A DNA stretch of 64,000 nt, from the NCBI GenBank assembly GCA_019326865.1, contig GCA_019326865.1_4101.1, one strand, 5' to 3'. The notes under the pieces were generated by a model. That model had not been told where the DNA came from and ran no database searches. It saw only the letters and a list, made by a program, of their open reading frames with translations. Source of the stretch: a phage. Positions 14,817 through 58,594 of the stretch are shown piece by piece (the first letter of the stretch is position 1; each line of letters starts with the position of its first letter). The position numbers and the translations under genes were made by a program.

Positions 14817-14820
14817 ATTT

Positions 14821-16611: not shown

Positions 16612-16612
16612 T

Positions 16613-17562: not shown

Positions 17563-18029
17563 ATATTTTAGGAAACATCGATACTGCAAATTATTTTATC
17601 CAAGACGCACTATTTAATACACTACAAAAAGGTTTAGAAGTTCGTTACAACGTATATCAAGGTGATGGATATTTTGTTGATATTCTAGAAACACGTAAAA
17701 ATACATTTAATGTTAACATTACGACGTTTGGAAGACAGAACATTGCACGAATTTTAGTAAGTAAAGATGAAATAGTACTGAGATACAGTGCTAAGTTTAT
17801 GTTGACGTACAAGAAAAAAACAGACATGTTCAGTACTAATTTATTTGATGAACCATTTGACCTTGTAGATATTGAAGCTACTTTCTTTACTCAAAGTACT
17901 ATGGTAAAATACACTGATGTTCAATTTTCATCAGACGTTATGTCTGAAACATTACAAATGATCAAGGTATTATTTTATGCATTTGAGCAATTCAGAGAAG
18001 AAAGAAACAAGGTTAACAACCACAGATGA
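17556..18029 (+). CDS. hypothetical protein
   Basis: 157 aa; degenerate motif 'ATFFTQSTMV'. Confidence 0.5.
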   Translation: MLDILGNIDTANYFIQDALFNTLQKGLEVRYNVYQGDGYFVDILETRKNTFNVNITTFGRQNIARILVSKDEIVLRYSAKFMLTYKKKTDMFSTNLFDEPFDLVDIEATFFTQSTMVKYTDVQFSSDVMSETLQMIKVLFYAFEQFREERNKVNNHR

Positions 18030-18390
18030 ACTAATAGAGGCGATCACTAAGGAGTCAAAATACCACAAAGGGATTCGTCTATATTTTATAGATCTTGGTT
18101 CAATGGACGGCATATACATTTATGGTTCACAATCTTTATCTTATGATGTAATGCCAAAAAAATATGTAAAAATCTTTTTAGGGTCAAATAAGAAAACTTT
18201 CTTGACAATTAATGATAAAAACGTTATTATGAATTCTTTGGGTCATGATAAAGTGAAAATTGATCTAAACACGCTGGATGATATTGATTTTTTTCAATAC
18301 GAATGTTTAGGTGTTGACTTACATGGAATCAGTAGTGATATGATAAAATCATTAATCAAATATTTCGAAGGCGTTCATAAATGTATCTAA
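17977..18390 (+). CDS. hypothetical protein
   Basis: 137 aa; 'DIDFFQYECLG'; 53 nt overlap, start uncertain. Confidence 0.45.
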   Translation: MHLSNSEKKETRLTTTDELIEAITKESKYHKGIRLYFIDLGSMDGIYIYGSQSLSYDVMPKKYVKIFLGSNKKTFLTINDKNVIMNSLGHDKVKIDLNTLDDIDFFQYECLGVDLHGISSDMIKSLIKYFEGVHKCI

Positions 18391-18887
18391 CTAAATCGAT
18401 GAAAAATTCATTTGATAAAATCAAGAGTTGTCTTGATGGAGAGAATATTACAAGTGTTACACAATCTGCTGACCAAATTCAATGCAGTTCAAGTGATTGT
18501 ACTGTTATTTTGGGTTTACATAGTCTGCGTTTGTCAATAGTAAATAATATTGACAACACTGCTATTGTAATCACACCGTGCAATATTCAAAATGAGAATG
18601 GTGTATATCTTCATCACATGGGAACCGCATTTTATATTTTCAATACAAACAATACACTCGAAACAATCGTTAAGGAATATAATACACTTAACATTGATCC
18701 TGGTGAGTTATTTCAGATGAGTACGTTGTATTCATGTGATTTTACTGATACCTCACGTATTTTACCATTTTTCTTGGAAATTTTAAAGAAAATGGATAAT
18801 TTAAATCGTCAATACAATAAAAAAATGGTTCCAGAAGCTATATTAAATATTACTGATGCTATGGAAAAATATAAAGCAGTGCCTTAA
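18381..18887 (+). CDS. hypothetical protein, FamA
   Basis: 168 aa; 'DPGELFQMSTLYS'. Confidence 0.55.
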   Translation: MYLTKSMKNSFDKIKSCLDGENITSVTQSADQIQCSSSDCTVILGLHSLRLSIVNNIDNTAIVITPCNIQNENGVYLHHMGTAFYIFNTNNTLETIVKEYNTLNIDPGELFQMSTLYSCDFTDTSRILPFFLEILKKMDNLNRQYNKKMVPEAILNITDAMEKYKAVP

Positions 18888-18930
18888 TAAAAAACGCACA
18901 TGGAGTGCATATGAAGATCAAGGATAGATC

Positions 18931-19404
18931 ATGGAGATTAAAACTGTTGAAAATGGGAAAATTGATGACATTTTAGACTTGGACGCATTCAAAGTTCATG
19001 ATATAATGTTTAATGTGAAGGACATTATTCAATGTCTGTTTTTATGCAGCAAGACTATGCATGATTTTTTTCACAACCCGAATACTAATGTTTTTATACT
19101 TACAATCAGTACTGAAAACTCGTTTATCATGGGTATGCCCATGAGTACAAATGAACAGTATATTGATTGTGTTATTCGCAATAATGATTGTATTACCCCA
19201 CAATCTGAAGTTCGCAAAAAGAAAAACACTTACACAATCAAAGATGATAAAATCATGATGTGTTGCAGTAAAGGATTTATATTGGACAATTTCATCGTCA
19301 AAGATAGTTATCATGACTTTAAAATTTCCGAAAATCAATCCAATGTAGTTCTTTATGCTAGTGATATCGAAAGTTTAACAGTCAAAGATCCTAGTTTGGA
19401 GTAA
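18931..19404 (+). CDS. hypothetical protein
   Basis: 157 aa ORF. Confidence 0.5.
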   Translation: MEIKTVENGKIDDILDLDAFKVHDIMFNVKDIIQCLFLCSKTMHDFFHNPNTNVFILTISTENSFIMGMPMSTNEQYIDCVIRNNDCITPQSEVRKKKNTYTIKDDKIMMCCSKGFILDNFIVKDSYHDFKISENQSNVVLYASDIESLTVKDPSLE

Positions 19405-23685: not shown

Positions 23686-24207
23686 ATGTCGAAGAAGGAT
23701 ACTTCGAATAAGCACTCAGTTCATTTCAGTACTGGAAAAGATAACTGGACAACCCCAAAAGATTTTTTTGAAGATTTAGATGAGTTATGGGGATTTACAC
23801 TTGATGCTGCTTGTGTAGATGAGACTGCATTGTGTGATAATTTTTTCACTCCAGAAGATGATTCACTGTCACAGGATTGGGGAAATAATATAGTTTGGTT
23901 GAATCCACCATATAGTGACTTAAAAACATGGTTATCTAAAGCTGTAGATGCATATAATAACGGAGCAACTGTAGTTATTCTTGTACCCTCAAGAACCGAT
24001 ACAATTGCTTTTCAGGATTATGCTGCTAAAATATGTGATTGTATTTGTTTTATTAAGGGAAGATTGCGATTTGGTATACCAGAAGAACCCGATAAGAAAA
24101 CTGATTCAGCACCATTTCCTTCGTGTCTGATAGTTCTGGATAAGTACTTAACCACTGCTAAAATCAATTGTCTTAAATCTCTCGGATTGGTGATGAAGAA
24201 TTTATGA
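23686..24207 (+). CDS. DNA methyltransferase, phage Dam-like (N6-adenine type by NPPY motif)
   Basis: 173 aa; catalytic 'WLNPPYSD' (D/N-P-P-Y/F) motif; size typical of small phage MTases. Confidence 0.7.
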   Translation: MSKKDTSNKHSVHFSTGKDNWTTPKDFFEDLDELWGFTLDAACVDETALCDNFFTPEDDSLSQDWGNNIVWLNPPYSDLKTWLSKAVDAYNNGATVVILVPSRTDTIAFQDYAAKICDCICFIKGRLRFGIPEEPDKKTDSAPFPSCLIVLDKYLTTAKINCLKSLGLVMKNL

Positions 24208-24737
24208 AAGAAACATGTATATTATCATTTATGAGATGTAACCCAGTCCACAATGGACATGGTTTAGTTTTTGAAAAGGCCAAAACATTACAAGAACAGT
24301 ACAATGCTGATTTAAAAATTTATCTAAGCACTAGTACTGACAATATAAAAAACCCACTACCACCTGAACTAAAAATGTATTATACAGAGGGATTCTATCC
24401 TTCAGTGCAAGAGAACATCTACACAGAGGACAATCTATTTGATATAATGAGAGAACTGGATGGAAAGTACTTAGATGTTCTCTTCATATGTGGTTCTGAC
24501 CGTATTGATTCTTTTCAGAAAACCCTTGACACTTACAATGGGAAGTTGTATAATTTTTGTAATATAAAAGTAATTCAAGCAGGTATTGACCGCCAATCAA
24601 GTCGATATAGCTCAACACAAATGCGTAAGTTTGCCAAAAATGAAGATTTTGATAGTTTTCGTGAGTTTTTGCCTGGAAATGACGAGAACTTAAAAATTCA
24701 ATTATTTGAAGATGTTATAAAATACATGAGGAAATAA
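24204..24737 (+). CDS. HIGH-motif nucleotidyltransferase (NMNAT/PPAT-like)
   Basis: 'SFMRCNPVHNGH' (HxGH) and 'SSTQMR' (ISSTxxR-like) motifs; ATGA overlap with MTase. Confidence 0.65.
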   Translation: MKETCILSFMRCNPVHNGHGLVFEKAKTLQEQYNADLKIYLSTSTDNIKNPLPPELKMYYTEGFYPSVQENIYTEDNLFDIMRELDGKYLDVLFICGSDRIDSFQKTLDTYNGKLYNFCNIKVIQAGIDRQSSRYSSTQMRKFAKNEDFDSFREFLPGNDENLKIQLFEDVIKYMRK

Positions 24738-31238: not shown

Positions 31239-31502
31239 ATGAATATTCAAGATAGATTACAATTACTATACACTATTGAACAGGCTGCTTTTGAACTTGT
31301 TAATAAAATCTCCGAAGAACTTCCCAAAGGAACTATAGTTCGTGTACGTGAGAGGGATTATGAATCTGGAGAAATTGAAGAACTAGTACTGACCGTGAAT
31401 AAAGTAACATACTATGAATCTGAGTTGGCTATCCAATGTAGATCGGAAGATGGTAAAATATACTATTATGACACTGGTGTAGATATAGAGGTAATAAAAT
31501 GA
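31239..31502 (+). CDS. hypothetical small protein, FamC
   Basis: ATG 31239 (TAATATG junction); 'LPKGTIVRVRERD'. Confidence 0.5.
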   Translation: MNIQDRLQLLYTIEQAAFELVNKISEELPKGTIVRVRERDYESGEIEELVLTVNKVTYYESELAIQCRSEDGKIYYYDTGVDIEVIK

Positions 31503-32641
31503 CCCTTTTGCAAATATATGAAGATTTAATGCACTTGTGCAATACAAACGATGCGTTCTTTTATGTGGATCATAAAAGTCCTGCTGGTGGAACGTATCGT
31601 GTATTCAGTTATCGTCTAGCATCATATACTGATTTCATGCAACCCAATGCATTAGAAACCCGTGGATCTATGTGGGAAATTGATGAAGAAGGTAATATGA
31701 TTCGTTGTGCTGCTCGTACTATGAAAAAGTTCTTTAATGCTTACGAGAATCCTGCTACAATGTTCCCTGCTAACACCACATGCGATGACATTGCAGTAGT
31801 GATGCCTAAATTGGATGGTTCAGTGATCAGTACTTACCGTGACAATGATGGTGAGATTCGTTGTAAATCACATACTGCATTGTATTCTGACCATGCGATT
31901 AACAGTACTCGACTTATTAACGAGAACCAGAATCTATATCAGTACATCGATGAAGCTGAACGTTTAGGTTACACAGTTAATATGGAGTATACAAGCCCAG
32001 AGTACCGAATTGTATTACCGTATCAGGTAGAACAATTGTTTGTGCTGAACGTTCGTCATCGTGTAAGTGGTGAGTTGCTATGTGGTAAAGCATTACGTGA
32101 TAAGTTTCCATGTCTTTCACAGTACAGCACTAATATGACAGGAAAAGATATTCATCACACTTTTCCTGTGCGAAATTCATTCCGTGAAAGCGTTGATGAA
32201 GTTCATAAAATGCTTGACATTGAGGGTTTTGTTTGCATTTTAAAAGATGGGACAATGTGTAAAATAAAGACTGACTGGTACAGTTCATTACATCTTACAA
32301 AAGATAGTATTATTATTGATTCTCATTTATATGAAGCTGTATTAAATGGTTCAAGTGATGATTTAAAACAATTGTTCAGTTCTGACGAATATGCTATGCA
32401 AAAGATATTAAGAATGGAACAGTTGGTTTTTTCGTGCTATAATGCATTACAAGATGAAGTAGAAAGCTTCGTCAATGAACACAAGCACTTAGAGCGAAAG
32501 GAATTCGCATTGAAGGTTCAGACGTGCTTATCTAGTGAACTGAATCGTCAGGGCTTGGCATTTGCAATGTATAATAATAAGAAAGTTGATTACAAAGATA
32601 CACTTATCAAATACATGAAAATTATACTAAAAGATTTTTAG
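31499..32641 (+). CDS. rnlA: RNA ligase 1 (T4 RnlA-like)
   Basis: 380 aa; KxDG motif 'MPKLDGSVIS'; N-term 'FYVDHKSPAGGTYRVFSYRLASYTDF' parallels T4 Rnl1. Confidence 0.9.
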   Translation: MTLLQIYEDLMHLCNTNDAFFYVDHKSPAGGTYRVFSYRLASYTDFMQPNALETRGSMWEIDEEGNMIRCAARTMKKFFNAYENPATMFPANTTCDDIAVVMPKLDGSVISTYRDNDGEIRCKSHTALYSDHAINSTRLINENQNLYQYIDEAERLGYTVNMEYTSPEYRIVLPYQVEQLFVLNVRHRVSGELLCGKALRDKFPCLSQYSTNMTGKDIHHTFPVRNSFRESVDEVHKMLDIEGFVCILKDGTMCKIKTDWYSSLHLTKDSIIIDSHLYEAVLNGSSDDLKQLFSSDEYAMQKILRMEQLVFSCYNALQDEVESFVNEHKHLERKEFALKVQTCLSSELNRQGLAFAMYNNKKVDYKDTLIKYMKIILKDF

Positions 32642-33737: not shown

Positions 33738-34670
33738 ATGCCAACTATCACCTTAACAATTGGGTTGCCTGGGTGTGGTAAAACTACATGGGCAGTGCAA
33801 GAGATTAAAAACGCCAAATCTAAGACTATCAACATCAACCGTGATGATATTCGTGAATCTATGGCGGGGTCACATGATGCTTACAAATTCAACGATGCTA
33901 ATGAGCAGTACGTAACTACTTTACAGTTCAGTGCAGCAAATTTAGCAGCAGAGAATGGTTGGAACATCATCATATCCGATACGAACCTTAAACAACATTT
34001 CCGTGATCTCTGGAAAGTATGGGCTAAAGATAATGATTATGATTACAAAGAAAAGAACTTCTATGATGATTTTGTACCTAATGAAGACCGTGGTGCAGAT
34101 GTTCATGAATTCTTTAAGATTAAAGAGTTCGTAAAACTTTGTAAGAAATATAACCGCCAGCGTGAGCGTTCAGTACAAGATAATATCATTGACACTATGG
34201 CAGATACTTACTATTATAGTAAAGCAATGCACATTGGTTACTATGGTAATTCAAGAGAAGCCGCTGTTATCGTTGATATTGACGGAACTCTTGCTCATAA
34301 ATGGGGTCGTAATCCTTACGATGAAAGTACTGTACTACAAGATACACCAGATGAAGAAGTTATTTTGTCTATTATCGCTGAAGCAGTTTTCCATAAACGT
34401 AAGATTATTGTAATGAGTGGGCGTACTGAAGGGTGTCGTGCAGACACAGAACAGTGGCTTAAGAATTGGGGTGTTCCTTACGATGCATTGTTTATGCGAG
34501 GCATCGATGATAAACGACCCGATGATGTGGTAAAATATGAGTTGTATATGAATAACGTCGTGCATCATTACGATGTTAAAAAAGTATACGATGACAGATC
34601 ACAAGTCGTATTCATGTGGCGTAAACTACTTGGATTAAAAGTGATGCAAGTTGCAGAAGGAAATTTCTGA
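33738..34670 (+). CDS. pseT: polynucleotide 5'-kinase/3'-phosphatase (T4 Pnk/PseT-like)
   Basis: 310 aa; Walker A 'GLPGCGKTT'; HAD motif 'VIVDIDGTLA'; terminator downstream. Confidence 0.9.
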   Translation: MPTITLTIGLPGCGKTTWAVQEIKNAKSKTININRDDIRESMAGSHDAYKFNDANEQYVTTLQFSAANLAAENGWNIIISDTNLKQHFRDLWKVWAKDNDYDYKEKNFYDDFVPNEDRGADVHEFFKIKEFVKLCKKYNRQRERSVQDNIIDTMADTYYYSKAMHIGYYGNSREAAVIVDIDGTLAHKWGRNPYDESTVLQDTPDEEVILSIIAEAVFHKRKIIVMSGRTEGCRADTEQWLKNWGVPYDALFMRGIDDKRPDDVVKYELYMNNVVHHYDVKKVYDDRSQVVFMWRKLLGLKVMQVAEGNF

Positions 34671-39139: not shown

Positions 39140-39367
39140 ATGAAAGTAATTCAAGTTATGGTAGAAAAATACCAAACTGAAGATGGTCGTATTTTTGATT
39201 CAGCTAAACAAGCTGAACATCATGAACGTATTATTTCGGGTACACGTAAAGTGTGTCCTACATGTAATGGAACACAACAAGTGCCGTCAGAAGATTACCG
39301 CAGCTTTTATGCTTGTCCATACTGTGATGGGAAAGGCTATGTAGAAAAACAAGAGGTATGGAAATGA
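39140..39367 (+). CDS. small zinc-finger protein (DnaJ-type CxxCxGxG repeats)
   Basis: 'CPTCNGTQ' and 'CPYCDGKG'. Confidence 0.5.
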   Translation: MKVIQVMVEKYQTEDGRIFDSAKQAEHHERIISGTRKVCPTCNGTQQVPSEDYRSFYACPYCDGKGYVEKQEVWK

Positions 39368-39777
39368 AATTGTATTGCTTAACTAATATGTACTGTCAAG
39401 GTGTCCAAGCTGGTATTCAAGCATTTCATGCTGGTGTTAAACTAATCAAAGAATATGAAGGTACTGCTTTCAGTACTATGATTGATGAATGGTATAATGA
39501 GCACGAAACTATTGTAGTACTAAATGCGGGTGGACATGATAAATTAAATTCTTATTATAAAGACCTTAACAAACAGGGAACAGTTCCGTTTGCCAAATTC
39601 AATGAAGCTGGATTGAATGATGCTATTACATGTATCGCAGTACTGTGTACATCTGAAATGATTGAAGACATGGCTGTTATGCGTATGAATCTTCCTGCTG
39701 GTGATCAGCTAATGCAAGTGAAATATGGTGCATTGTTTGACACACTTAAAGCAATCAGTACGATGAGGACAATTTGA
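39358..39777 (+). CDS. hypothetical protein
   Basis: 139 aa ORF. Confidence 0.5.
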   Translation: MEMKLYCLTNMYCQGVQAGIQAFHAGVKLIKEYEGTAFSTMIDEWYNEHETIVVLNAGGHDKLNSYYKDLNKQGTVPFAKFNEAGLNDAITCIAVLCTSEMIEDMAVMRMNLPAGDQLMQVKYGALFDTLKAISTMRTI

Positions 39778-47151: not shown

Positions 47152-49824
47152 TTACGCACTGATTGTTACAGTTGCAGTATCTTTTTTATTACCATCCACA
47201 GTAGTCACTGTAATGATTACAGAACCTTCTTCTAGAGCAGTTACTAATCCATCATCACTAATAGATACTTTAGTAGGTTCATCTGCACTATAAGTTACTG
47301 ATTTGTTAGTTGCTTTAGCTGGAAGAACTTCAGGAACTAGTTGAACTGTTTTAGTTCCTGATAGTGAAAGTTCAGTAGTTTTAGGTGTTAAACTAACACT
47401 GGATACTGGAACTGGAATATTAACGATTACTGATGTTTGACCAGTAACATCACTACCATCAGCGGCAGTAGCGATAATATTTGCAGTACCATTAGTTAGT
47501 GCAGTTACGATACCAGTATTAGCATCTACTTTAGCAATTTCTGGAGCACTGGATGACCAAATTACTTTTTTATTGGTTGCATTACTTGGGGTAATTGCAG
47601 CAGTCATCTGTTTAGTTGCATTCAATGTAGTCAAAGTTTGATCTTTAGGAGTTACATCAATTGCAGTTACTGGCACTGGAATATTAACAGTAATAACACC
47701 TTGACCTGTTTTACCACTTCCATCAGCAGCAGTTGCGATAATGTTTGCAGAACCGTTAGTTAACGCAGTTACAACACCAGTACTAGCATCTACTTTCGCT
47801 ACAGCAGGTTTACTGGAAGACCATGTTACAGATTTATTTGTTGCGTTAGTTGGAAGAACTTCAGCAGCCATTGCTTGAGTTGCGTTAACAGCAGTCAATG
47901 TTTTAGTTGCTGGAGTAACATTAATAGATGCGACTGGAACTGGAATTGCTACAGTTACCGCACATTTTGCAGTTTTTGCTCCATCAGCAGTTGTTACTGT
48001 GATATCAGCAGTGCCATTTGCTACAGCAGTGATTAAACCAGTTGGACTAACAGTTGCCACTCCATCAGCAGAAGTACTATAAGTTACTGCTTTGTTGGTA
48101 GCATTAGGTGGTAGTACAGTTGGTGTTAGTTGTTGAGTATCACCGACTGAAGTTAATTTAGCACTTGTTGGAGATACTGATACACTTGCAACAGGAACTG
48201 GAATATTAACATTTACCACGCAAACTTTAGTAAATCCACCATCAGATGTGGTTGCTGTAATATTTGCAGTACCGTTTGCAACAGCAGTGATTAAACCAGT
48301 TGGACTTACCGTTGCGACACCCTCAGCAGAAGTAGTGTATGAAATATCTTTACGACGAGCGTTATCTGGAATAACAGATGCAGTTAGTTGTTGAGTAGCA
48401 CCTACAGAAGTTAGGGTTGCTGTCAACGGAGTCATATTAATACCAGTTACTGGGATCGTTACATCAATCACTGATTCAGCAGTTTTAGCACCATCATCAG
48501 TGGTAACAGTAATAGTTGTAGTACCGTTATCAACCGAAGTTACTAGACCAGTATTACTAACTTTTGCCACGTCTGGATATGAAGAAACATATGAAACTGC
48601 TTTATTGGATGCAGTTGTAGGAGCAACGGTTGTTTCTAATTGTTTAGTATCACCTAATGTTGAGAATGTATAAGTACTAGGAGTCATAGTGACACCAGAT
48701 ACAGGTGTTTTCACAGTGATAGTAGTAGTATCAGTTTTAGCACCATCTTCGGTTGTTGCTGTAATCACCACTGTACCGTTAGCAACACCAGTTACTAGAC
48801 CAGAAGTAGGGTTAACAGTTGCTATATCAGGTGTTGCTGAAGACCACGTGACGTTTTTATTAGTTGCATCATCAGGAGATATTGTAGCAGTTAATTGTTG
48901 AGTACCGCCAACGTTAATTGTTGCAGTTTTAGGAGAAACAACAACACCACTAACTGGAGTTGTTACAGTAACAGTACATTTTGAAACAAATATGCCATCA
49001 ACAGTAGTTGCAATTACATCAGTACTACCATCTGCAACACCAGTTACCATACCAGTTGGACTTACAGTTGCGACGCGTGGTATACTAGATAACCAATTAA
49101 CACGTTTATCACTTGCATCATCGGGTGATACGGTAGCTGTTAGTTGTTGAGTTTTACCAACACTAAGAGATAGAGTTGAAGGAGAAACAACAACACCACT
49201 AACTGGAGTTGTTACGGTAAATGCACAAACATCCGTGAAACCACCATCATGAGTAGTAACTGTTACATTTGCGTTACCATTAGCACGGGCAATTGCTAAA
49301 CCAGTTTGAGCATCAACTTCAACTATTGTTGGAGCAGAGGAACTATAACTTACTGTTTTATCATTTGCATAATCTGGATCAATTGTAGCTGATAGCTGTT
49401 GTGTACTACCAACTTTAAGTGCTACTACTTTAGGTGAAATAATTACACCATCAACTGGAGTAGTATAATCACGTTTAACCACACGACCATTGTTCAATTT
49501 AATAATACGACCCATATAAAGAGTAGTATATCCTTTACTAATCCCATCATCTACATAAATCATGAATGAATTGTCTTGAACCATATTAATTGCGTCTACT
49601 GGTTTAACGGAATTTGGAATGTCGATACCACGGGTATCATACCAACACATGGAAACTTTGTAATAGATATCACCATTATCATTTATGAGATCATAAACGT
49701 TACTGGAACGTTGACGGTTAATATATAAAGTTTCGGTTAACACCTTACCATCGATTTTAGCGACAGAAACTTTAATACCACCAATACCAAATGGCAATTT
49801 ACCTTCACTAGATATTGCTTTCAT
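47152..49824 (-). CDS. virion surface/decoration protein with nine Big_2 Ig-like repeats (Hoc-like or fibre-associated candidate)
   Basis: 890 aa; nine copies of 'NATNK.V.WSSS.P..A.V...G.VTA...G.A.I.AT..DG' pattern; only minus-strand gene; TATAAATA upstream. Confidence 0.8.
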   Translation of the reverse strand: MKAISSEGKLPFGIGGIKVSVAKIDGKVLTETLYINRQRSSNVYDLINDNGDIYYKVSMCWYDTRGIDIPNSVKPVDAINMVQDNSFMIYVDDGISKGYTTLYMGRIIKLNNGRVVKRDYTTPVDGVIISPKVVALKVGSTQQLSATIDPDYANDKTVSYSSSAPTIVEVDAQTGLAIARANGNANVTVTTHDGGFTDVCAFTVTTPVSGVVVSPSTLSLSVGKTQQLTATVSPDDASDKRVNWLSSIPRVATVSPTGMVTGVADGSTDVIATTVDGIFVSKCTVTVTTPVSGVVVSPKTATINVGGTQQLTATISPDDATNKNVTWSSATPDIATVNPTSGLVTGVANGTVVITATTEDGAKTDTTTITVKTPVSGVTMTPSTYTFSTLGDTKQLETTVAPTTASNKAVSYVSSYPDVAKVSNTGLVTSVDNGTTTITVTTDDGAKTAESVIDVTIPVTGINMTPLTATLTSVGATQQLTASVIPDNARRKDISYTTSAEGVATVSPTGLITAVANGTANITATTSDGGFTKVCVVNVNIPVPVASVSVSPTSAKLTSVGDTQQLTPTVLPPNATNKAVTYSTSADGVATVSPTGLITAVANGTADITVTTADGAKTAKCAVTVAIPVPVASINVTPATKTLTAVNATQAMAAEVLPTNATNKSVTWSSSKPAVAKVDASTGVVTALTNGSANIIATAADGSGKTGQGVITVNIPVPVTAIDVTPKDQTLTTLNATKQMTAAITPSNATNKKVIWSSSAPEIAKVDANTGIVTALTNGTANIIATAADGSDVTGQTSVIVNIPVPVSSVSLTPKTTELSLSGTKTVQLVPEVLPAKATNKSVTYSADEPTKVSISDDGLVTALEEGSVIITVTTVDGNKKDTATVTISA
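47155..49452 (-). repeat. intragenic tandem repeats encoding nine Big_2 Ig-like domains
   Basis: about 255 nt coding unit repeated nine times within CDS 47152-49824. Confidence 0.7.
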
Positions 49825-50136: not shown

Positions 50137-50165
50137 TTGACATAATTAATCAATTATTGTACTAT
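50137..50165 (+). promoter_or_regulatory. candidate promoter (TTGACA-17-TACTAT)
   Basis: in 376 bp divergent intergenic region upstream of CDS 50201. Confidence 0.35.
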
Positions 50166-50874: not shown

Positions 50875-51135
50875 ATGACAAACATCCAGAATTTGACGTC
50901 TATTATTTTTTATGCTACAGTGGTGATGTATGCTATTGTACTTATTTTAACAGTTTTTATTTACAAAGATTACAAAAAAGGCTTTATTAATAGTACAACA
51001 ATGAAGTTCAATTCTAAATTTGAAGCAATTATATTTTATGTTTTGACAACATCATATTTGTTGTGTATAATGTTACTAGGGTCATTGATTTATATTTTAT
51101 ATACAACATTATTTGCAATTGGAGCTATTTTATGA
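50875..51135 (+). CDS. small membrane protein
   Basis: 86 aa, multiple hydrophobic helices. Confidence 0.5.
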   Translation: MTNIQNLTSIIFYATVVMYAIVLILTVFIYKDYKKGFINSTTMKFNSKFEAIIFYVLTTSYLLCIMLLGSLIYILYTTLFAIGAIL

Positions 51136-51728
51136 CATGTATTATTGCACACACTGATGGTGTAACTTCATTTATTGCAGGGGACAAGATGGGGAGTGAT
51201 GGTTTTACGAAATCAATCCAAACAGAGCCTAAAGTGTTTGAGAAAGAATTTGTAAAGATTAGTGGTGATGACGGCTTGACTCGTACAAAAGATGTTATGA
51301 CAATTGGATTCACTACATCATTTCGTATGGGTCAACTGCTAACTTATAATTTAAATTTACCAGACCAAAATTCAAATGAGACGTTTCTACAGTATTTAGT
51401 ACTGAAAGTTATTCCTCTTATTCGTCAAATGTTTAAAGACGAATGGGGTGCACGTGATACAACACAAGATGTTGGTGGTGGTCAATTTATTATTTTACAC
51501 AATCATACGATTTATGAAATTCAGGAAGATTTTTCGGTTCTCCAGTCAAAATCAAGAGTTGCATCTGTTGGTAGTGGTACATATCATGCAATTGCAGCTA
51601 TGCAAGCATATATTGATCTTGAGAAAGAAACTAACGTACAACTACATGAACGTATCAAATCCATTTTCAAAATTGTTAGTGATAATGTATCGAGTGTAAG
51701 CGAAGAGTTTGATGTATTAAAATATTAA
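51132..51728 (+). CDS. HslV/proteasome beta-like Ntn-hydrolase peptidase
   Basis: ATGA start; 'MTCIIAHTDGVTSFIAGDKMGSDG' vs HslV 'TTIVSV...VIAGDGQATLG'; 'VGSGTYHAIAAMQAY' vs HslV GSGG motif. Confidence 0.55.
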   Translation: MTCIIAHTDGVTSFIAGDKMGSDGFTKSIQTEPKVFEKEFVKISGDDGLTRTKDVMTIGFTTSFRMGQLLTYNLNLPDQNSNETFLQYLVLKVIPLIRQMFKDEWGARDTTQDVGGGQFIILHNHTIYEIQEDFSVLQSKSRVASVGSGTYHAIAAMQAYIDLEKETNVQLHERIKSIFKIVSDNVSSVSEEFDVLKY

Positions 51729-51743: not shown

Positions 51744-51938
51744 ATGATGGCATACACAATTTATGAATGGATTTTGAGTTTTATTATAGTATTTTTTATG
51801 GTTGTAATTTACAATAATGCTAAATGCTTATATAGAGATTTAAAATCCAATGGTTATCATGCAAACAATAATTTAATGTATGCCTATCATATTGGAATCA
51901 TTCTATTATTATCAATATATTTAATTGGTTTTATTTAA
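51744..51938 (+). CDS. small membrane protein
   Basis: 64 aa, two hydrophobic helices. Confidence 0.45.
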   Translation: MMAYTIYEWILSFIIVFFMVVIYNNAKCLYRDLKSNGYHANNNLMYAYHIGIILLLSIYLIGFI

Positions 51939-51947
51939 GGATTGCGT

Positions 51948-52700
51948 ATGATATCAGAAAAATTTATAAGTAATGAGGGAAACAAGAGATTACTTATTAT
52001 CTCAGGAGCAGGTCTTTCCGTTGAAAGTGGGATGGAGCCATTTCGATTTGATGATGGCTTATGGGATACATTTAAAATTAATGACGTATGTAATATTGCA
52101 AATTTAGATACAAAATATCATGTTGTTCATTCGTTTTATAACACACTGCGTGTTAAACTGGGTCAATGTGAACCAAATGCAATGCATTATTTTATAAAAT
52201 CCTTAGAGGACCAATATGGTGATTGTTTTCTTCATATGACCTCCAATATGGATGATCTTTATACACGTATTGGTGGCAAAGAACTAAAACTTCATGGTAA
52301 TTTATGTGAAGTGATAGAAAATTATAGTATTAATGGTGATGATTATAACATTGTTAACTGTGGTTATGAGCCATATATACCAAAACATGATGTTTTTGCT
52401 AAACCAAATGTAGTGATGATTGGTGAATATCACCGTTATGTTGATGGTGTTCGTTTGCCAATATATGAAGAAAGAAATAATGTTTTAAAAACACTTAATG
52501 AAAACGATACTGTGATTGTTATTGGAAGTAGTGATACAGTACTTGTGTGGTCCAGATTAGCTGCGGCATTACCCTGTTATAGCGTTAATGTTAACATTCG
52601 TAAAAATGATAATGATTTTCTGTTCAATGAAAAAATTATTCAACCAGCTACCAAAGCAATACCACAATTAGAGACTATAATTAAGGAACGTATGAAATGA
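51948..52700 (+). CDS. Sir2-family (sirtuin-like) NAD-dependent enzyme
   Basis: 'ISGAGLSVESGMEPFR', 'TSNMDDL', catalytic 'LHGNL', 'PNVVMIGEY'; ATG after AAGG. Confidence 0.75.
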   Translation: MISEKFISNEGNKRLLIISGAGLSVESGMEPFRFDDGLWDTFKINDVCNIANLDTKYHVVHSFYNTLRVKLGQCEPNAMHYFIKSLEDQYGDCFLHMTSNMDDLYTRIGGKELKLHGNLCEVIENYSINGDDYNIVNCGYEPYIPKHDVFAKPNVVMIGEYHRYVDGVRLPIYEERNNVLKTLNENDTVIVIGSSDTVLVWSRLAAALPCYSVNVNIRKNDNDFLFNEKIIQPATKAIPQLETIIKERMK

Positions 52701-53248
52701 GTGTTAAAGAAGTTCCCTTTGGTGAATATGGTTCACGTGCCAATTTTGTATTTTGCTATTTCTTTGCAAGAAAATGTAACCCTTACGAAAATTACGAATT
52801 GAATGATATACCAGAAGTAAATTTAGTATTACTTCAATTACGTTGGGATGGCCTTCTAGGGGGATGTGGTGGGACAGTTGAAAGTACTGATATCTCACTA
52901 GAAGATGCGTTACGTCGTGAAATTCAAGAAGAGATGGATTACAATATTTTTGTTTCCCATCTTCGACCACTTAAAACTTTTGAAATTTACCCAGGTGCAA
53001 ACAGTCATAGTTTTAGCTATGAAGTAACCTATGATGAGTTGAAACACATTAGAGATGGATACACTAATGCTAAACATGCGAGTGCTGAAGTGGCTGGTGT
53101 AAATTTATGTCATATTTCTCGTTATTCTAAGGGACAAAATCGAGAAGCGGGATATAATAATCTTATGACTCAGAACTTCATTGGTACAGCAAAACAAGAA
53201 TTGGAGTATCTGGTTCAAAAAGAAAACTTACTAATTAGTTATCTATAG
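52697..53248 (+). CDS. Nudix hydrolase-like protein
   Basis: Nudix-box-like 'GGCGGTVESTDISLEDALRREIQEEMDY'; ATGA overlap with Sir2. Confidence 0.6.
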   Translation: MSVKEVPFGEYGSRANFVFCYFFARKCNPYENYELNDIPEVNLVLLQLRWDGLLGGCGGTVESTDISLEDALRREIQEEMDYNIFVSHLRPLKTFEIYPGANSHSFSYEVTYDELKHIRDGYTNAKHASAEVAGVNLCHISRYSKGQNREAGYNNLMTQNFIGTAKQELEYLVQKENLLISYL

Positions 53249-53257
53249 GAGTTTAAC

Positions 53258-53578
53258 ATGTCTTACTCAATGTTTTTGGATGATATCCGTGATGCAAATC
53301 TATATTATCCAAACCAAGATATGGTGGTATGTCGTGACTTTAAAAGTGCATGTGAATATGTTATTGAAAATGGAATTCCAGCATTTGTATCATTCGACCA
53401 TGACTTGGGTGATGTGAGCGAAGACGAAAAGACTGGATATTCTTTTGCTAAGTTTCTTATTGATTATATGTTTGATAATAATATTAAAGAACCGTTTGAG
53501 TACTTTGTTCACAGTAGTAATCCTGTTGGTAAAATTAATATTGAAACATACTTAAACAATGGGTTTAACGCATTATGA
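53258..53578 (+). CDS. hypothetical protein (possible receiver-like domain)
   Basis: 106 aa; acidic 'FLDDIRD' and 'SFDHDLGD' pattern; assignment tentative. Confidence 0.45.
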   Translation: MSYSMFLDDIRDANLYYPNQDMVVCRDFKSACEYVIENGIPAFVSFDHDLGDVSEDEKTGYSFAKFLIDYMFDNNIKEPFEYFVHSSNPVGKINIETYLNNGFNAL

Positions 53579-53877
53579 TTCAAACACACATCAAAAGTCT
53601 TATTTGTACTGTTCTGTTAGGTGTAGGTGTTCTTTGGTTCGGATATTATCACGAGAACACTAAGCGTACTAACATTCACTACAATACCGCAGAAGTTGTT
53701 AGTTTAGGGCAATGTAGTGAGTCAAAATGTGCATTTACGTACAAAACCAGTAATGGTGAAATACGTAATGGACTATCAAGAGAACCAGTTTCGATTGGTC
53801 AACTTGTTTACCAGGAGTGCTGGGAAGAAAAGGTTCGAGGTTCACGTTGCTATGTTGAATACGAACCAAATATGTAA
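53575..53877 (+). CDS. small membrane-anchored protein
   Basis: 100 aa; N-terminal TM 'LICTVLLGVGVLWFGYY'. Confidence 0.5.
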   Translation: MIQTHIKSLICTVLLGVGVLWFGYYHENTKRTNIHYNTAEVVSLGQCSESKCAFTYKTSNGEIRNGLSREPVSIGQLVYQECWEEKVRGSRCYVEYEPNM

Positions 53878-53937
53878 TAATCCAAGTCAATAACATTAGT
53901 CGAGTACAAGGATGTACTCATAACTCAAGGATGTTTT

Positions 53938-55377
53938 ATGAAAAAATATACAATTGACACAAACGTACTACTATCTGATCCAAATGCGTCTGTTGCTTTT
54001 GATGGTGCTGCAATCATTCTACCATTTACAGTACTGGAAGAATTGGATTCGATTAAGAGTCGCAATGTTGATGTTTCACGTGATGCTCGTGTTGCGATTC
54101 GTAACATTGAAGCAATTATTGCAGAGGCATCACATAATGAGATTAGTTGTACTGGTGTTAATATTGCTGATGTTCATACCAATATGAATCCTGATAGCAA
54201 ATTGTTTGTTATTACAACCGAAGAAGCTGAGGCACTAATTCGTACTAAAGGTTCAGACGAGAAAGTTCAAACCCTTCTTAAAAGTACTGTACCTGATGAT
54301 AAAATTATTCTGGTTGCTTTAGCAACCGAATCAGTACTGGTAACTCGTGATATCAACATGCGTATCAAAGCACTAAGTTATGGTGTCGAGGTACAAGACT
54401 ATCGTCATGATATTGTTATTGGTGATAGTGATTTGATGCACATTGGTCAACATCATTTGGAACTCAATTTTTGGGATGTATATAGCAATTTAGCAAATAC
54501 AAATATTAAAACTGAACAAATTGGTCGTCGATTGTATCATTACATTCCTAAAAGCTTGATTGGTCATTTACTTCCACAAAATCTATGCATTGGTGATTAT
54601 CTATATGATGATGCTGATGTATTATTTGTATATGAAGGCCAATCAGCCATTGAGGAAGATGATGGCACACTAACACCAGAAGATATTTTGGTATTCCAAG
54701 ACATTGGTCAATCTGTAGCTTTGCGTGCTAAAGTATGGGATATTAAAGCAAAGAATATTCAACAAGCACTTGCAATCAACAGTATTCTCGATCCTGATGT
54801 ACACCTAACAGTGCTGCTAGGTTCTGCTGGAACTGGCAAAACATTAATTACGATTGCTACTGCACTAGAGTTAGTACTGGAAAAACGCAAATACGACCGT
54901 ATTATCTTCTCTAAAACACAAGATTCACAGTTTGAAGATATAGGATTCTTGCCAGGTTCTGAGACAGAGAAAGTTATCCCATTCTGTGGACCTGCAATTG
55001 ATGCTCTTGAGTATCTTCATAAAGATGATGTATCACCACAAGGTAGCATCGAAGAGATTCTCAAACGTAACGTGATGCAATTTAAAGCATTGAACTTTAT
55101 TCGTGGTCGTTCTTTTGCCAATACAATTCTAATTGTGGATGAAGCACAGAACTTAACACCAGCCCAGTTAAAAACTGTCTTGACAAGAGCCGGAGAAAAC
55201 TGTAAAGTAATCATACTTGGTAACCTAGCACAGATTGATAACAAGTTTATCAGTCCAGTAAACAGTGGTTTGACATATGTAACTGAAAAATTCAAGGATT
55301 GGAGTGGTTGTCGTATCATTGAATTAGAAGGTGTTGTTCGTTCACCACTTGCTGAATTTGCTGAAGAAAATATGTAA
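53938..55377 (+). CDS. phoH: PhoH-like ATPase with N-terminal PIN domain
   Basis: PIN 'YTIDTNVLLSDP'; Walker A 'GSAGTGKT'; Walker B 'LIVDEAQN'. Confidence 0.85.
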   Translation: MKKYTIDTNVLLSDPNASVAFDGAAIILPFTVLEELDSIKSRNVDVSRDARVAIRNIEAIIAEASHNEISCTGVNIADVHTNMNPDSKLFVITTEEAEALIRTKGSDEKVQTLLKSTVPDDKIILVALATESVLVTRDINMRIKALSYGVEVQDYRHDIVIGDSDLMHIGQHHLELNFWDVYSNLANTNIKTEQIGRRLYHYIPKSLIGHLLPQNLCIGDYLYDDADVLFVYEGQSAIEEDDGTLTPEDILVFQDIGQSVALRAKVWDIKAKNIQQALAINSILDPDVHLTVLLGSAGTGKTLITIATALELVLEKRKYDRIIFSKTQDSQFEDIGFLPGSETEKVIPFCGPAIDALEYLHKDDVSPQGSIEEILKRNVMQFKALNFIRGRSFANTILIVDEAQNLTPAQLKTVLTRAGENCKVIILGNLAQIDNKFISPVNSGLTYVTEKFKDWSGCRIIELEGVVRSPLAEFAEENM

Positions 55378-55445: not shown

Positions 55446-55634
55446 ATGGCTAAACAACCCAAGAAAAAAGAACCAGTAGCTAAAGTTAAAAAAGAAAAAG
55501 TTATTCAATCCAAAGAACAACGTATGTACGAACAACGTAAGAGTGAAACTCTATCTGGGCTACAAGCTCTACGCAAACAAGGTATTCTAACTCGTGCACA
55601 ATATCGTGAACTAGTATCTATGAAAGGTTTTTGA
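55446..55634 (+). CDS. small basic protein
   Basis: 62 aa Lys-rich; AAGGAG RBS; TGATATAAT element upstream. Confidence 0.5.
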   Translation: MAKQPKKKEPVAKVKKEKVIQSKEQRMYEQRKSETLSGLQALRKQGILTRAQYRELVSMKGF

Positions 55635-55737: not shown

Positions 55738-55765
55738 ATCCCTGTCAATTGGCAGGGATTTTTTC
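55738..55765 (+). terminator. rho-independent terminator
   Basis: ATCCCTG-TCAATTGG-CAGGGAT then TTTTT. Confidence 0.7.
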
Positions 55766-56445: not shown

Positions 56446-56775
56446 ATGAGCAAAATTAATGTTGATGTAGTTATTGGTTATATTGAAATTGAACCGTGTA
56501 GTATTGATACAATGATTGACACTCTTAGTAAGTATCGTTTAGAGTACAGGGGACATATTAGTATTTCGCCCGACGGTGGTTACGGTGGATTCCATGGATA
56601 CAATGTAATTTGGACCAGAGAAGAAACTGACGAAGAATATAATACACGAATTGAAGCTGAATCTAAAAGACGTGAAGAAATTGATCGTCAAGAAATGAAA
56701 CAATTAATGAACAAGAAATCATTAAGTTCCGAAGAGAAAGAAAAACTTCTAACATACATCAAGGATTACATGTAA
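56446..56775 (+). CDS. hypothetical protein
   Basis: 109 aa ORF. Confidence 0.5.
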   Translation: MSKINVDVVIGYIEIEPCSIDTMIDTLSKYRLEYRGHISISPDGGYGGFHGYNVIWTREETDEEYNTRIEAESKRREEIDRQEMKQLMNKKSLSSEEKEKLLTYIKDYM

Positions 56776-57614
56776 TGAAAAATGTAACTCAAGAAAAGAT
56801 TCTGTACCTTGCAAAGTACAATGGTGGTTTCAATATCATTAGCCGTGAGTATCGTGGTAATTTGGCTAAGTTGATTGACAGCTTGTTAGAATTCGATTTC
56901 ATTAAATGGGAAACTAATGAACTTTGGTATGAATATGCTGGTCAGAAATGGGAAAGTGATTATGATAATGCAACACATACCTATACTATCACCAAAGCAG
57001 GTGAAGTTCGTCTATTGATTTATCGTCTAGCATATGCTTATAAGAATCATAAAGATACTGATAAGCACCAACGTAGGATTGATGAATTACAGCAAGCACT
57101 TCAACAATATGATTTAGATATTAATAATTTCAAAGATTGTTGTTCTAAGAATGAACTTAAAGCAATTAATGATTTCAATAGTAAGACCACAAATGTTGAA
57201 TTAACTGATTCTGTTGACTTAGAACTTTCACCATACAATACCAATCCTACTTGGGGAAGAACTCTTACTAATATCAATGATATTGATTTCAGCCAACCAG
57301 CACTGAATAATATGTTCCAAATGAGTTCAATGCTGGGTGCTAAAGGTTTTGATGCGTCAAGAACTGATGATTATGTTCTTCGTAAAATAAATGAAGAACT
57401 TGGTGAAATGACACTTGAAATGAACATCCGTGATGGGTTATCATATAAAGAAGCAGGTAAAGATGGTGTCAAAGGTGAAGCTGTAGATCTTTGCATTTGT
57501 GCACTTGACATGTTCGCTTTGCAATGCGATAATATGAGTCCAGAAGAGATGGAACGTGAGTTCCTTACTTACATGAATGTTAAACTAGCCAAATGGCGTA
57601 AATCAATTCAATAG
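56775..57614 (+). CDS. protein with MazG-like NTP pyrophosphohydrolase domain
   Basis: C-terminal 'INEELGEMTLEM...KGEAVDLCICALDMFA' (EExxE...ExxD pattern). Confidence 0.55.
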   Translation: MKNVTQEKILYLAKYNGGFNIISREYRGNLAKLIDSLLEFDFIKWETNELWYEYAGQKWESDYDNATHTYTITKAGEVRLLIYRLAYAYKNHKDTDKHQRRIDELQQALQQYDLDINNFKDCCSKNELKAINDFNSKTTNVELTDSVDLELSPYNTNPTWGRTLTNINDIDFSQPALNNMFQMSSMLGAKGFDASRTDDYVLRKINEELGEMTLEMNIRDGLSYKEAGKDGVKGEAVDLCICALDMFALQCDNMSPEEMEREFLTYMNVKLAKWRKSIQ

Positions 57615-57622
57615 GTTTTTTA

Positions 57623-58594
57623 ATGAAAACTAAAATTATTTCTGAACAAAAAATCGGCAATACTACAGTACTGAATCTTGAAGTTCAAGATCTTAGTAAT
57701 GTTCGTTCTCTTACTGTTTGTACTCAGAGAGATGATTTGACTGATTTTTATAACTCCGAATACATGTCAGAAGAACATTGGGATATGGGATGGTTAGACG
57801 GTAGTAGTTATATCAGTTCTCGTTATAGTTTTGGTTCTCATGAAAATATTGAACAAGTAAAAAATGAGTATATTAAACTCAGTGATACTATTGAAATGAA
57901 AGAAGAAGATTGTGTAGAACTTTTCATTTTTGAATTCGATGCAGGAAATGGTAATTCATTACTAGTAAGTAATATTGAAGAACATTTAATGTATCATGAT
58001 ATTGAAGATGTAGATTTTAAAAGTATTAAAAATGTTGTTCATATGGTTGGTGGTAGTATTACTGATGATTCAGATATCGGTCATAATATTTCACTGTGCT
58101 TAATTTCTCATCCAAAAACTCGTGGTTTTAAAGTTCCACAAGATGAAACTTACGTGTTTGAAACTGCTGATGAAGGAATTTATCCTTGGAATGATTATGT
58201 AGAATACTATGGTCATTTCTGTTCTGATATAAAAGAACTGAAAAAAGGCGAACGATATTTTGATATGTTCCGTGCTGCACAGCGTTTAGTACTGAATAAT
58301 ACTGAACTATTTCCTGAACGCGGTGAAGAAAATATGATTGATATTATCTTCAAGAACTATGATTATGTGCAGAACATTCCTGATAATGTACATTTGGAAT
58401 ATGTTCACGGTTCTTCAAACAAATTCTATAATATTGAATTGAATGCTCCAGTGTGTGAAGTAATCATTGAGTACGGTGCTATTGGTAAAACCAGTACTAC
58501 CGATGGTGAAGAATTCGAAACTATTGAAGAAGCACGTAAGTTCTTCGAGAAGAAAGTAATTTCCAAAATTAAAAGTGGTTATATCCCAAAATGA
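57623..58594 (+). CDS. protein with C-terminal WGR-like domain
   Basis: 'SSNKFYNIELNAPVCEVIIEYGAIGKTSTTDGEEFETIEEARKFFEKKVISKIKSGY' fits WGR pattern. Confidence 0.5.
   Translation: MKTKIISEQKIGNTTVLNLEVQDLSNVRSLTVCTQRDDLTDFYNSEYMSEEHWDMGWLDGSSYISSRYSFGSHENIEQVKNEYIKLSDTIEMKEEDCVELFIFEFDAGNGNSLLVSNIEEHLMYHDIEDVDFKSIKNVVHMVGGSITDDSDIGHNISLCLISHPKTRGFKVPQDETYVFETADEGIYPWNDYVEYYGHFCSDIKELKKGERYFDMFRAAQRLVLNNTELFPERGEENMIDIIFKNYDYVQNIPDNVHLEYVHGSSNKFYNIELNAPVCEVIIEYGAIGKTSTTDGEEFETIEEARKFFEKKVISKIKSGYIPK

Follow-up and report, generated by a model that had tools for sequence, protein, structure and literature searches.

Introduction

Three gene neighbourhoods centred on a sirtuin (a Sir2-family protein) were described in phages by Iyer et al. 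2022 (PMC9503650, section 3.7.3). In the neighbourhood found in jumbo phages the sirtuin is accompanied by 2H, Nudix, cREC and PIN domains, and an RNA repair that relies on nicotinamide adenine dinucleotide (NAD+) was proposed for it, in which a KptA/Tpt1-like sirtuin would move ADP-ribose (ADPr) from NAD+ to an RNA 2'-phosphate, leaving as an ADPr cyclic phosphate (ADPr>p) (PMC9503650). The cREC, 2H and Nudix proteins were proposed to prepare the RNA end or to degrade ADPr>p, and cREC was noted to be experimentally uncharacterised (PMC9503650). A literature search for experiments on phage sirtuins and on cREC gave only two papers, both of them computational (PMC7824862, PMC9503650). Here we describe a locus of this kind in a 64,000-nucleotide stretch of phage DNA (contig GCA_019326865.1_4101.1, hereafter the window), where three translationally coupled genes of the + strand (51948-53578), joined by an ATGA overlap and a short spacer, encode a sirtuin, a Nudix hydrolase and a cREC protein.

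This trio is the copy, carried by the genus Asteriusvirus, of the sirtuin-centred NAD+/ADPr module of Iyer et al. 2022. The sirtuin gene is linked to genes for the Nudix, the cREC and a PIN endoRNase in a contiguous same-strand arrangement (51948-55377), and the locus belongs to the same supergroup as that of Serratia phage BF (type 1 of Iyer et al.), with Sir2, Nudix, cREC and PIN(-PhoH) in the same order and 44-68% identity to the BF proteins. It differs from the BF type in that the Nudix and cREC are separate coupled genes, whereas they are fused in BF, and in that the window is without the 2H and NAMPT/NMNAT-Nudix genes, with an HslV-like peptidase in their slot. A first-pass annotation of the window had held this gene combination to be undescribed, which was not correct: both the combination and the RNA-repair hypothesis are already published, and no new system is discovered here. 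All three published sirtuin neighbourhoods were reproduced in the phages that we sampled.

Several better characterised systems resemble parts of the locus. The Tpt1/KptA-2H-Macro pathway is a proposed analogy, with its NAD+-dependent transfer, its release of nicotinamide and ADPr-1'',2''>p and the opening of the cyclic phosphate; there is no homology, however, since the window has a sirtuin (Rossmann fold) in place of an enzyme of the ADP-ribosyltransferase (ART) fold, cREC (receiver fold) in place of 2H and a Nudix pyrophosphatase in place of a Macro phosphatase. The NARP2 pathway (NAMPT + NMNAT), for which experiments have demonstrated an action against defences that deplete NAD+ (bioRxiv 10.1101/2024.02.11.579819), shares the NAD+ theme and adjoins the trio in BF, in Klebsiella phage RaK2 and, judged by the position of NAMPT, in other RaK2-like genera. 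In contrast to the trio it synthesises NAD+ rather than consuming it, and it is absent from the window and apparently from its lineage. The defence proteins ThsA, DSR1/2 and SIR2-HerA are likewise NAD+-consuming members of the Sir2 superfamily, but the phage sirtuin stands alone, without sensor domains and without any PADLOC match.

The sirtuin clade and cREC are widespread in phages and viruses. The remaining interest is experimental and concerns the activity of a widespread zinc-less phage sirtuin and of the cREC domain. To this the window adds a minimal module in which the three genes are unfused and neither NAD+ salvage nor 2H genes adjoin them, and a culturable E. coli phage carrying it is a convenient and tractable experimental entry point, not a discovery.

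The sirtuin

The sirtuin gene occupies positions 51948-52700 of the + strand, where the first-pass annotation had placed it, and encodes 250 residues. The ATG at 51948 is its likely start because the sequence AAGGA (51937-51941) lies 6 nt before it; the TTG at 51942, which the ORF (open reading frame) finder listed, leaves no room for a suitably spaced ribosome-binding site. The TGA at 52698-52700 is the stop codon.

The product matched the SIR2 profile of Pfam (PF02146, 4.2e-20, 72.9 bits where 24 is the cut-off) and the Sir2 family phrog_2162 of PHROGs (6.5e-78). Its nearest solved relatives by sequence were CobB of E. coli, with an E value of 1e-22 and about 28% identity, followed by an archaeal Sir2 and SIRT5. 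An AlphaFold2 model built from 29 homologues, with a predicted local distance difference test (pLDDT) value of 92.3, gave its best Foldseek superposition on CobB (template modelling score 0.78/0.86), and the top 50 Foldseek matches were all deacylase-type sirtuins, including Sir2Af and SIRT5, with no defence NADase among them. A PADLOC scan of all four proteins examined, the sirtuin included, returned no meaningful match to a defence system, and an NCBIfam scan returned only sub-threshold CobB-type matches and no equivalog.

The motifs on which the first-pass annotation had based its assignment (GAGLSVESGMEPFR, TSNMDDL, LHGNL and VVMIGEY) all occur in the protein and line up with those of CobB, and the assignment of 51948-52700 to the Sir2 fold with a catalytic histidine agrees with the profile match, the CobB similarity, the model and H116, located in LKLHGNL. 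The catalytic and NAD-binding residues are kept in GAGLSVESGMEPFR, in TSNMDDL (with S in place of Q) and in LKLHG, and residues G20, G22, S27, N100, D102, D103, H116 and G117 were invariant in the 29 homologues.

When the window protein was aligned with the sirtuins of BF, RaK2 and T5-like, phi92, KVP40-like and rV5-like phages and with CobB, the GAGxS...FR loop (damaged in RaK2), the (T/S)xN(M/V)DDL motif, the catalytic histidine H116 and the xVVxxGE motif were kept throughout. The four zinc-binding cysteines of CobB, by contrast, had no counterpart in any aligned protein of the phage clade: these contain one to six cysteines in total (a single one in BF_0112), none of them conserved at the zinc positions, and a conserved (I/V)GY(E/N)xxxP segment takes the place of the zinc cysteines. 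In the RaK2-like subgroup a 9-residue insert follows GE and the arginine of the Y-x-x-R motif is displaced (YNTLR), whereas the T5-like and rV5-like sirtuins retain the class-III Y-x-x-R motif (FYNKRR and FYNARR). The whole phage clade, which was present in about 1,000 of 50,697 sequenced phage records, is zinc-less yet closest to CobB/SIRT5 and not to the defence NADases. CobB and SIRT5 share with it GAGxS, FR, N/D, the catalytic histidine and VVxFGE, and differ from it in the lost zinc tetrad, in the Q of TQNID, which becomes S, A or T, and in the RaK2-like insert with its shifted Y-x-x-R.

Since the NAD motifs are kept and the zinc cysteines are gone, the phage sirtuin should bind and cleave NAD+, with a remodelled acceptor-binding small domain. 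The window protein is predicted from these features to be an NAD+-consuming ADP-ribosyl transferase or deacylase of class-III-like type. No ART-fold KptA domain was found in it, the fold being that of a sirtuin.

The second of these activities would make it a conventional lysine deacylase, which would de-acylate host or phage proteins as CobB does and leave O-acyl-ADPr to be destroyed by the Nudix (with cREC). The best sequence and structure matches (CobB, Sir2Af and SIRT5), the retention of all NAD-binding and catalytic residues and the annotation of the sirtuin in public records agree with this, but the zinc tetrad of the characterised deacylase sirtuins has gone from the entire phage clade, and against the class-III motif of the T5-like and rV5-like members stands its displaced arginine in the RaK2-like subgroup. 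Nudix enzymes able to hydrolyse O-acetyl-ADPr exist (yeast Ysa1 and NUDT5). Deacylation, however, offers no rationale for cREC or for the RNA ligase, HAD_SAK and MazG neighbours that recur beside the clade, and leaves the fusion of Nudix and cREC, described below, unexplained. We regard it as an improbable account of the locus.

The RaK2 sirtuin itself (gp033, L003:4707-5444; also L014:8704-9444) has GNG for GAG and a cofactor loop without the FR and GLW residues, the loop being intact in seven other RaK2-like loci, so that this protein may be catalytically impaired beside an intact Nudix and an intact cREC.

The Nudix and cREC proteins

The second gene (52697-53248, + strand, ATG at 52697 to TAG at 53248) encodes a Nudt16-like Nudix hydrolase of 183 residues, and its start overlaps the sirtuin stop in the sequence ATGA (52697-52700); both the coordinates and the overlap had been reported in the first-pass annotation. 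The protein matched PF22327 (Nudt16-like, 1e-18, 68.3 bits against a cut-off of 27) and PF00293 (NUDIX, 1e-6) of Pfam as well as the nudix family phrog_9999 of PHROGs (5e-90), and could be aligned to NUDT16 of humans and X29 of Xenopus along some 140 residues (E about 3e-12, about 30% identity). Its Nudix box RREIQEE corresponds to NRELREE of NUDT16 (REx2EE). With the residue roles of NUDT16 taken from PMC6459841, E75, E79 and E131 correspond to the metal ligands Glu76, Glu80 and Glu136, R49 to Arg50 and FIGTA to the purine-pocket motif FIGSA; the N-terminal region, including the equivalent of His24 of NUDT16, was not alignable. The Nudix assignment of 52697-53248 is well founded, with the Pfam match and all three metal-binding glutamates of NUDT16 present.

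NUDT16 hydrolyses free and protein-linked ADPr and takes NAD, FAD and CoA caps off RNA; the non-adenosine (distal) ribose stays solvent-exposed in it and conjugated ADPr is accepted (PMC6459841, PMC7337524). NUDT16/X29 also acts in the decapping of U8 snoRNA. The phage Nudix shares with NUDT16/X29 the PF22327 family, the metal ligands, Arg50 and the purine-pocket motif, and differs from them in its limited identity and in its distribution. This subfamily occurred in only 71 phage records, all of RaK2-like jumbo phages, and it adjoined the sirtuin in the sampled RaK2-like records with usable annotation.

The third gene (53258-53578, + strand), with its ATG at 53258, an AGGAG sequence 6 nt before it and a TGA stop ending at 53578, encodes the cREC (cyclic-phosphate-processing receiver-like) protein of 106 residues, a predicted metal-independent phosphoesterase. 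It lies downstream of the Nudix gene as the first-pass annotation had stated, with a spacer of 9 nt and not of 10. The description of the product as acidic and receiver-like was also right (18 D/E against 7 K/R, and a predicted model with a receiver fold), but its match to PF20274 (cREC_REC, 1.5e-22, above the curated cut-off of Pfam) places it in a distinct family. This family was defined by Iyer et al. 2021 as receivers never paired with histidine kinases, for which a phosphoesterase activity was predicted (PMC7824862). Among 50 aligned sequences from the 169 homologues that were retrieved, D8, D9, R11, the stretch F46-D47-H48-D49-L50, S86, N88 and G91 were invariant and H85 and P89 nearly so, and the conserved acidic residues D8, D9, D47 and D49 occupy receiver active-site positions. 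No solved structure of any cREC was found.

A census of cREC in IMG/VR gave at least 555 viral matches, from which 80 loci were kept and collapsed to 54 non-redundant groups. Partners were sought within 4 kb on either side of the cREC gene, and the single-sequence phmmer probes, which are insensitive, were supplemented with de novo clustering and Pfam. No histidine kinase partner was present among the annotated or Pfam-scanned neighbours or the top clusters of the 54 loci. RNA-end-processing genes (RNA ligase, Pnkp-type HAD, RlaP or metallophosphoesterase) were found near cREC in 20 of the 54 loci, NAD/ADPr genes in 10 and both in 3, leaving 27 with no recognised partner. Among the former were a metallophosphoesterase in 9 loci, a PF09414 RNA ligase in 6, Rnl1 in 3, a Pnkp-type HAD in 4-5 and RlaP in 3; other genes near cREC were NAMPT in 5, an NMNAT-Nudix in 2, a weak Macro-like domain in 4 and Sir2 together with a Nudt16-like Nudix in 3, these last in RaK2-like groups only. 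RNA repair and NAD/ADPr are two recurrent genomic contexts of cREC.

The most frequent partner, a calcineurin-like metallophosphoesterase, differs from the Nudix partnership of the window. In one locus (L071:10001-11015) it directly follows cREC, with a start that overlaps the cREC stop; the other metallophosphoesterase loci are in the set L030, L031, L041, L044, L048, L050, L073, L074 and L086.

Conservation of the locus among jumbo phages

The 3-kb region shared 97.8% identity with Escherichia phage UE-S1 and about 90% with 121Q, PBECO4 and phAPEC6, all of them Asteriusvirus jumbo myophages of about 350 kb. In UE-S1 and 121Q-type records the first two genes are annotated as "Sir2-like" and "nudix hydrolase" and the third as "hypothetical", and the UE-S1 genome paper does not discuss the trio genes. 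Beyond the genus, a block composed of Sir2, Nudix, cREC, a membrane protein, PIN-PhoH and ORFs of 62 and 185 residues is syntenic with BF and RaK2, with 41-77% protein identity.

In BF-type phages the Nudix and cREC form one polypeptide of 301-302 residues (six loci). This fusion is strong evidence for a joint action of the two, and suggests that they may act in sequence on one small molecule.

It also bears on another explanation of the locus, namely that the trio has no joint function and consists of three unrelated auxiliary genes, brought together by chance in an early region that is collinear among RaK2-like genomes. The synteny does reach past the trio, to the membrane protein, PIN-PhoH and the two small ORFs, and the sirtuin is found alone among hypothetical genes in phi92 and KVP40-like phages, where no neighbour was informative. 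Apart from the fusion, however, chance accounts poorly for the ATGA and short-spacer translational couplings and for the recurrence of the Sir2-cREC adjacency in the unrelated rV5-like lineage, and an NAD+ consumer beside an ADPr pyrophosphatase makes coherent biochemical sense. We consider this explanation the least probable of those weighed here.

In the rV5-like phage slur12, genes for an Rnl1-type RNA ligase, cREC, Sir2 and a MazG-like protein stand in a row, and in the T5-like phage SP15 the genes for the sirtuin and for a HAD "Swiss Army Knife" RNA-repair phosphatase are two genes apart.

Directly upstream of the sirtuin in BF and RaK2 are the NMNAT-Nudix and NAMPT genes of the NARP2 pair. 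The gene order in BF is NMNAT-Nudix, NAMPT, an Acb1-family 2H phosphodiesterase, Sir2 and Nudix::cREC; the 2H protein (BF_0110, L002:3940-4383) matched the Acb1 anti-CBASS family of Pfam (3.6e-15) and also a LigT-type PHROG, and with this gene between NAMPT and the sirtuin the region looks like an anti-defence island. NAMPT was conserved with at least 54% identity in every other RaK2-like genus sampled. With an identity limit of about 35%, the NAMPT matches included no 121Q-type record, and a very divergent copy elsewhere in that lineage is presumably absent; tblastn searches of the window gave no match to NAMPT or NMNAT-Nudix (E > 5) or to the BF_0110 2H protein (best E 1.5). The slot of the NAD+ salvage genes is filled in the lineage of the window by the HslV-like peptidase.

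These neighbours raise the possibility of counter-defence or NAD+ homeostasis, which is essentially what the first-pass annotation had suggested. The Nudix and cREC would degrade host ADPr-derived signals or toxic products (cyclic ADPR variants, ADPr-1''-phosphate or ADPr>p), and the sirtuin would make or modulate such molecules, or recycle NAD+ and nicotinamide alongside the NAD+ salvage of the relatives. The BF and RaK2 gene orders speak for it, as does the known activity of NAMPT and NMNAT as NARP2 against NAD+-depleting defences (bioRxiv 10.1101/2024.02.11.579819), and in the cREC census NAMPT lay within 4 kb in 5 of the 54 loci and some NAD/ADPr gene in 10 of them. The trio is kept in the lineage of the window, though, where NAMPT, NMNAT-Nudix and 2H are lacking from the window and the 121Q-type records yielded no NAMPT orthologue at the identity given above. 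The degenerate loop of the RaK2 sirtuin beside an intact Nudix and cREC suggests that these two can use substrates made by other enzymes; on the other hand, a sirtuin that consumes NAD+ is an odd partner for a pathway that restores it. Iyer et al. argue that Nudix, Macro and similar phage domains mainly counter soluble ADPr derivatives, and a perfect sigma-70 promoter upstream of the module (see below) is consistent with early expression. Nevertheless, the proteins have no similarity to known defence proteins (PADLOC), and the RNA ligase-cREC-Sir2 operons of rV5-like phages are left unexplained. This proposal, whether with the sirtuin as a maker of the signals or as a recycler of NAD+, seems rather unlikely to us, and the deacylase and mere-synteny explanations are less likely than either counter-defence or the RNA 2'-phosphate pathway considered next.

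A possible RNA 2'-phosphate pathway

Since all three domain assignments hold, the name of NAD/ADP-ribose-processing module, given to the trio in the first-pass annotation, is a fair one, and it probably couples an NAD+-consuming enzyme to the clean-up of ADPr derivatives. For the specific chemistry, the RNA 2'-phosphate mechanism is the most likely reading and we rank it first, with a probability of roughly 0.4.

In this mechanism the zinc-less sirtuin would catalyse the ADP-ribosyl donor reaction, transferring ADPr from NAD+ to an RNA 2'-phosphate in the manner of Tpt1/KptA with release of nicotinamide, and the catalytic histidine together with the ribose 2''-OH would then release ADP-ribose-1'',2''-cyclic phosphate. 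The cREC protein would open the cyclic phosphate of ADPr>p, after which the Nudix would cut the pyrophosphate to give AMP and phosphoribose, its NUDT16-type pocket tolerating substituents of the distal ribose. The remaining RNA-handling steps would be supplied by PIN-PhoH downstream and by Rnl1 and Pnkp, encoded 18-20 kb upstream. What we infer here is which acceptor the sirtuin uses and which substrates cREC and the Nudix act on.

Several considerations place this mechanism first. No other model accounts for the independent Sir2-cREC-RNA ligase operons, the Nudix::cREC fusion fits a pair of enzymes that work in succession on a single small molecule, a pocket of NUDT16 type is well suited to ADPr whose distal ribose carries a substituent, and sirtuin chemistry uses the ribose 2'-OH and a 1',2'-cyclic intermediate. 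The intact active sites, the gene order kept across genera, the restriction of the Nudix to RaK2-like records, the phosphatase near the T5-like sirtuin, the RNA-end-processing genes in 20 of the 54 cREC loci and the Rnl1, Pnkp and PTH2-like genes of the window speak for it as well. SIRT5 structures with the bicyclic intermediate appeared among the fold matches of the sirtuin, and this intermediate would parallel step 2 of Tpt1.

A number of observations weigh on the other side. We know of no sirtuin shown to ADP-ribosylate a phosphate, no experiments on the phage sirtuin clade or cREC were found in the literature, and the nearest relatives of the sirtuin, in sequence as in predicted structure, are the bona fide lysine deacylases CobB and SIRT5. 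To our knowledge, the T4-type Pnkp + Rnl1 pathway generates no 2'-phosphate junction and PIN nucleases leave no cyclic phosphates. The Rnl1 and Pnkp genes, at their distance of 18-20 kb, are outside the operon, and the immediate neighbours in RaK2-like phages are NAD+ salvage genes, with the Acb1-family 2H in BF, and not ligases. The RaK2 sirtuin has a damaged cofactor loop (GNG, without FR) beside an intact Nudix and cREC, and much of the synteny could reflect genome-wide collinearity among RaK2-like phages.

A broader form of the RNA 2'-phosphate proposal is doubtful: the zinc-less sirtuin would ADP-ribosylate a phosphate of RNA (or of a nucleotide), as a functional analogue of Tpt1/KptA outside the ART fold, and cREC would be the first receiver-fold cyclic-phosphate enzyme, both forming with the NUDT16-like Nudix an uncharacterised NAD+-dependent pathway of RNA healing or ADPr>p disposal against host RNA-cleaving or NAD-based immunity. 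If the predicted chemistry is right, it would mean a new class of sirtuin reaction (ADP-ribosyl transfer to phosphate), would give receiver-fold domains their first catalytic role and would put a further layer on the conflict between phage and host over NAD+ and RNA integrity.

Transcription and neighbouring genes

From the ClpP-like protease gene (50201) through the ORF of 62 residues (55446-55634) all genes are on the + strand and their junctions are short or overlapping. A second ATGA overlap, missed in the first-pass annotation, joins the cREC stop to the start of the next gene (53575-53578). This gene (53575-53877, + strand) encodes a membrane-anchored protein of 100 residues with four cysteines, which matched phrog_14661 (5e-42) and has counterparts in BF and RaK2 at the same position with 41-45% identity. 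It is followed at 53938-55377 (+ strand) by PIN-PhoH, a predicted RNA helicase/RNase of PhoH2 type (PIN_4 1.3e-20 and PhoH 6.5e-46; 68-77% identity to the BF and RaK2 orthologues), to which the "PIN endoRNase" in the neighbourhood of Iyer et al. corresponds; an RNA helicase/RNase function has been described for PhoH2 proteins (PMC5499597, PMC7824862). The last gene before the terminator (55446-55634, + strand) encodes the basic protein of 62 residues, which matched phrog_24119 (1.9e-36) and was found in BF and RaK2 by tblastn. The first convincing terminator downstream, an intrinsic-terminator-like hairpin with a 9-bp stem and a T-run (55738-55759, + strand), is the probable 3'-end of the transcription unit.

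Upstream, a perfect sigma-70 consensus (TTGACA-17-TATAAT, 12/12 match) is present at 51043-51071 on the + strand and is a candidate internal or early promoter, which could feed the HslV-like gene, the sirtuin gene and those downstream. Perfect TTGACA-N16-18-TATAAT sites occurred three times on the + strand of the 64 kb (7682-7711, 24526-24554 and 51043-51071) against 0.39 expected from shuffles, 2 of 100 of which reached three. The overall count of promoter-like sequences was not above that of the shuffles (34 against 37.7), and only the perfect 12/12 site stands out. Because the site at 51043-51071 is inside the 3'-end of an upstream ORF of 86 residues, whose end overlaps the ATG of the HslV-like gene (ATGA, 51132-51135), it is best seen as an internal promoter. 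A weaker promoter-like site (10/12) is located at 50137-50165, ahead of the protease gene.

The HslV-like Ntn peptidase (MTCIIAHTDG...; 51132-51728, + strand) was identified from phrog_1040 (1.5e-22) and the 121Q annotation. Nothing in the BF and RaK2 loci corresponds to it, and it is probably co-transcribed with the module without being part of the conserved block. Between it and the sirtuin gene lies an ORF for a hydrophobic product of 64 residues (51744-51938, + strand) of uncertain coding status, which is not annotated in 121Q and had no PHROG match. The segment 50201-51728 contains a ClpP/NfeD-like protease and the HslV-like peptidase with small hydrophobic ORFs between them.

The window also carries RNA-repair genes, for an Rnl1-like T4-type RNA ligase (31499-32641) and for a Pnkp kinase + HAD phosphatase (33738-34670), and a gene for a PTH2-like peptidyl-tRNA hydrolase (39358-39777), all 12-20 kb upstream of the module. 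Neither tRNA genes nor Rfam families were found in the 64-kb window.

Past the terminator, three genes on (56775-58594), are a protein of 279 residues with a MazG-like C-terminus (phrog_1247, 5e-16) and, next to it, one of 323 residues with a C-terminal WGR domain (PF05406, 1.9e-10), whose N-terminal 255 residues gave no match. The WGR domain is best known from PARPs. These two genes may share the NAD/nucleotide theme of the module, since a MazG-like gene also directly follows the sirtuin in rV5-like phages.

An unlinked nucleotidyltransferase and other features of the window

A possible NMNAT-like nucleotidyltransferase at 24204-24737 had been linked in the first-pass annotation to the same NAD theme, and this did not stand. 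The ORF has an HxGH motif and matched the "cytidyltransferase" families phrog_3041 (5e-56) and phrog_395 (4e-24) of PHROGs, whereas the genuine phage NMNAT-Nudix proteins matched phrog_395 at 1e-82. It had no match in Pfam and none by sequence in the PDB, and its BLASTP similarity to the NMNAT domains of BF and RaK2 (E 0.04-0.17) was marginal and restricted to the HxGH region, so that an NMNAT identity is unsupported, the more so as its PHROG is other than that of NMNAT-Nudix. The family phrog_3041 comprised 559 phage records, 375 of them from Synechococcus phages, and is mostly a gene of cyanomyophages; BF-type phages carry both a phrog_3041 gene and NARP2, far apart. The ORF adjoins a Dam methylase gene 27 kb from the module, and is a paralogous nucleotidyltransferase unlinked to the trio. 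The perfect promoter site at 24526-24554 falls within it.

On the - strand at 47152-49824, a protein of 890 residues has about ten Ig-like (BIG2-type) repeats where 121Q has only an Ig-domain structural protein of 125 residues, and appears to reflect an expansion of repeats, specific to this lineage, beside the module. Finally, some 40 ORFs of 100-200 residues, many with start/stop overlaps, follow one another without interruption on one strand from 300 to 19400 and may form an expanded family of paralogues such as is typical of jumbo phages.

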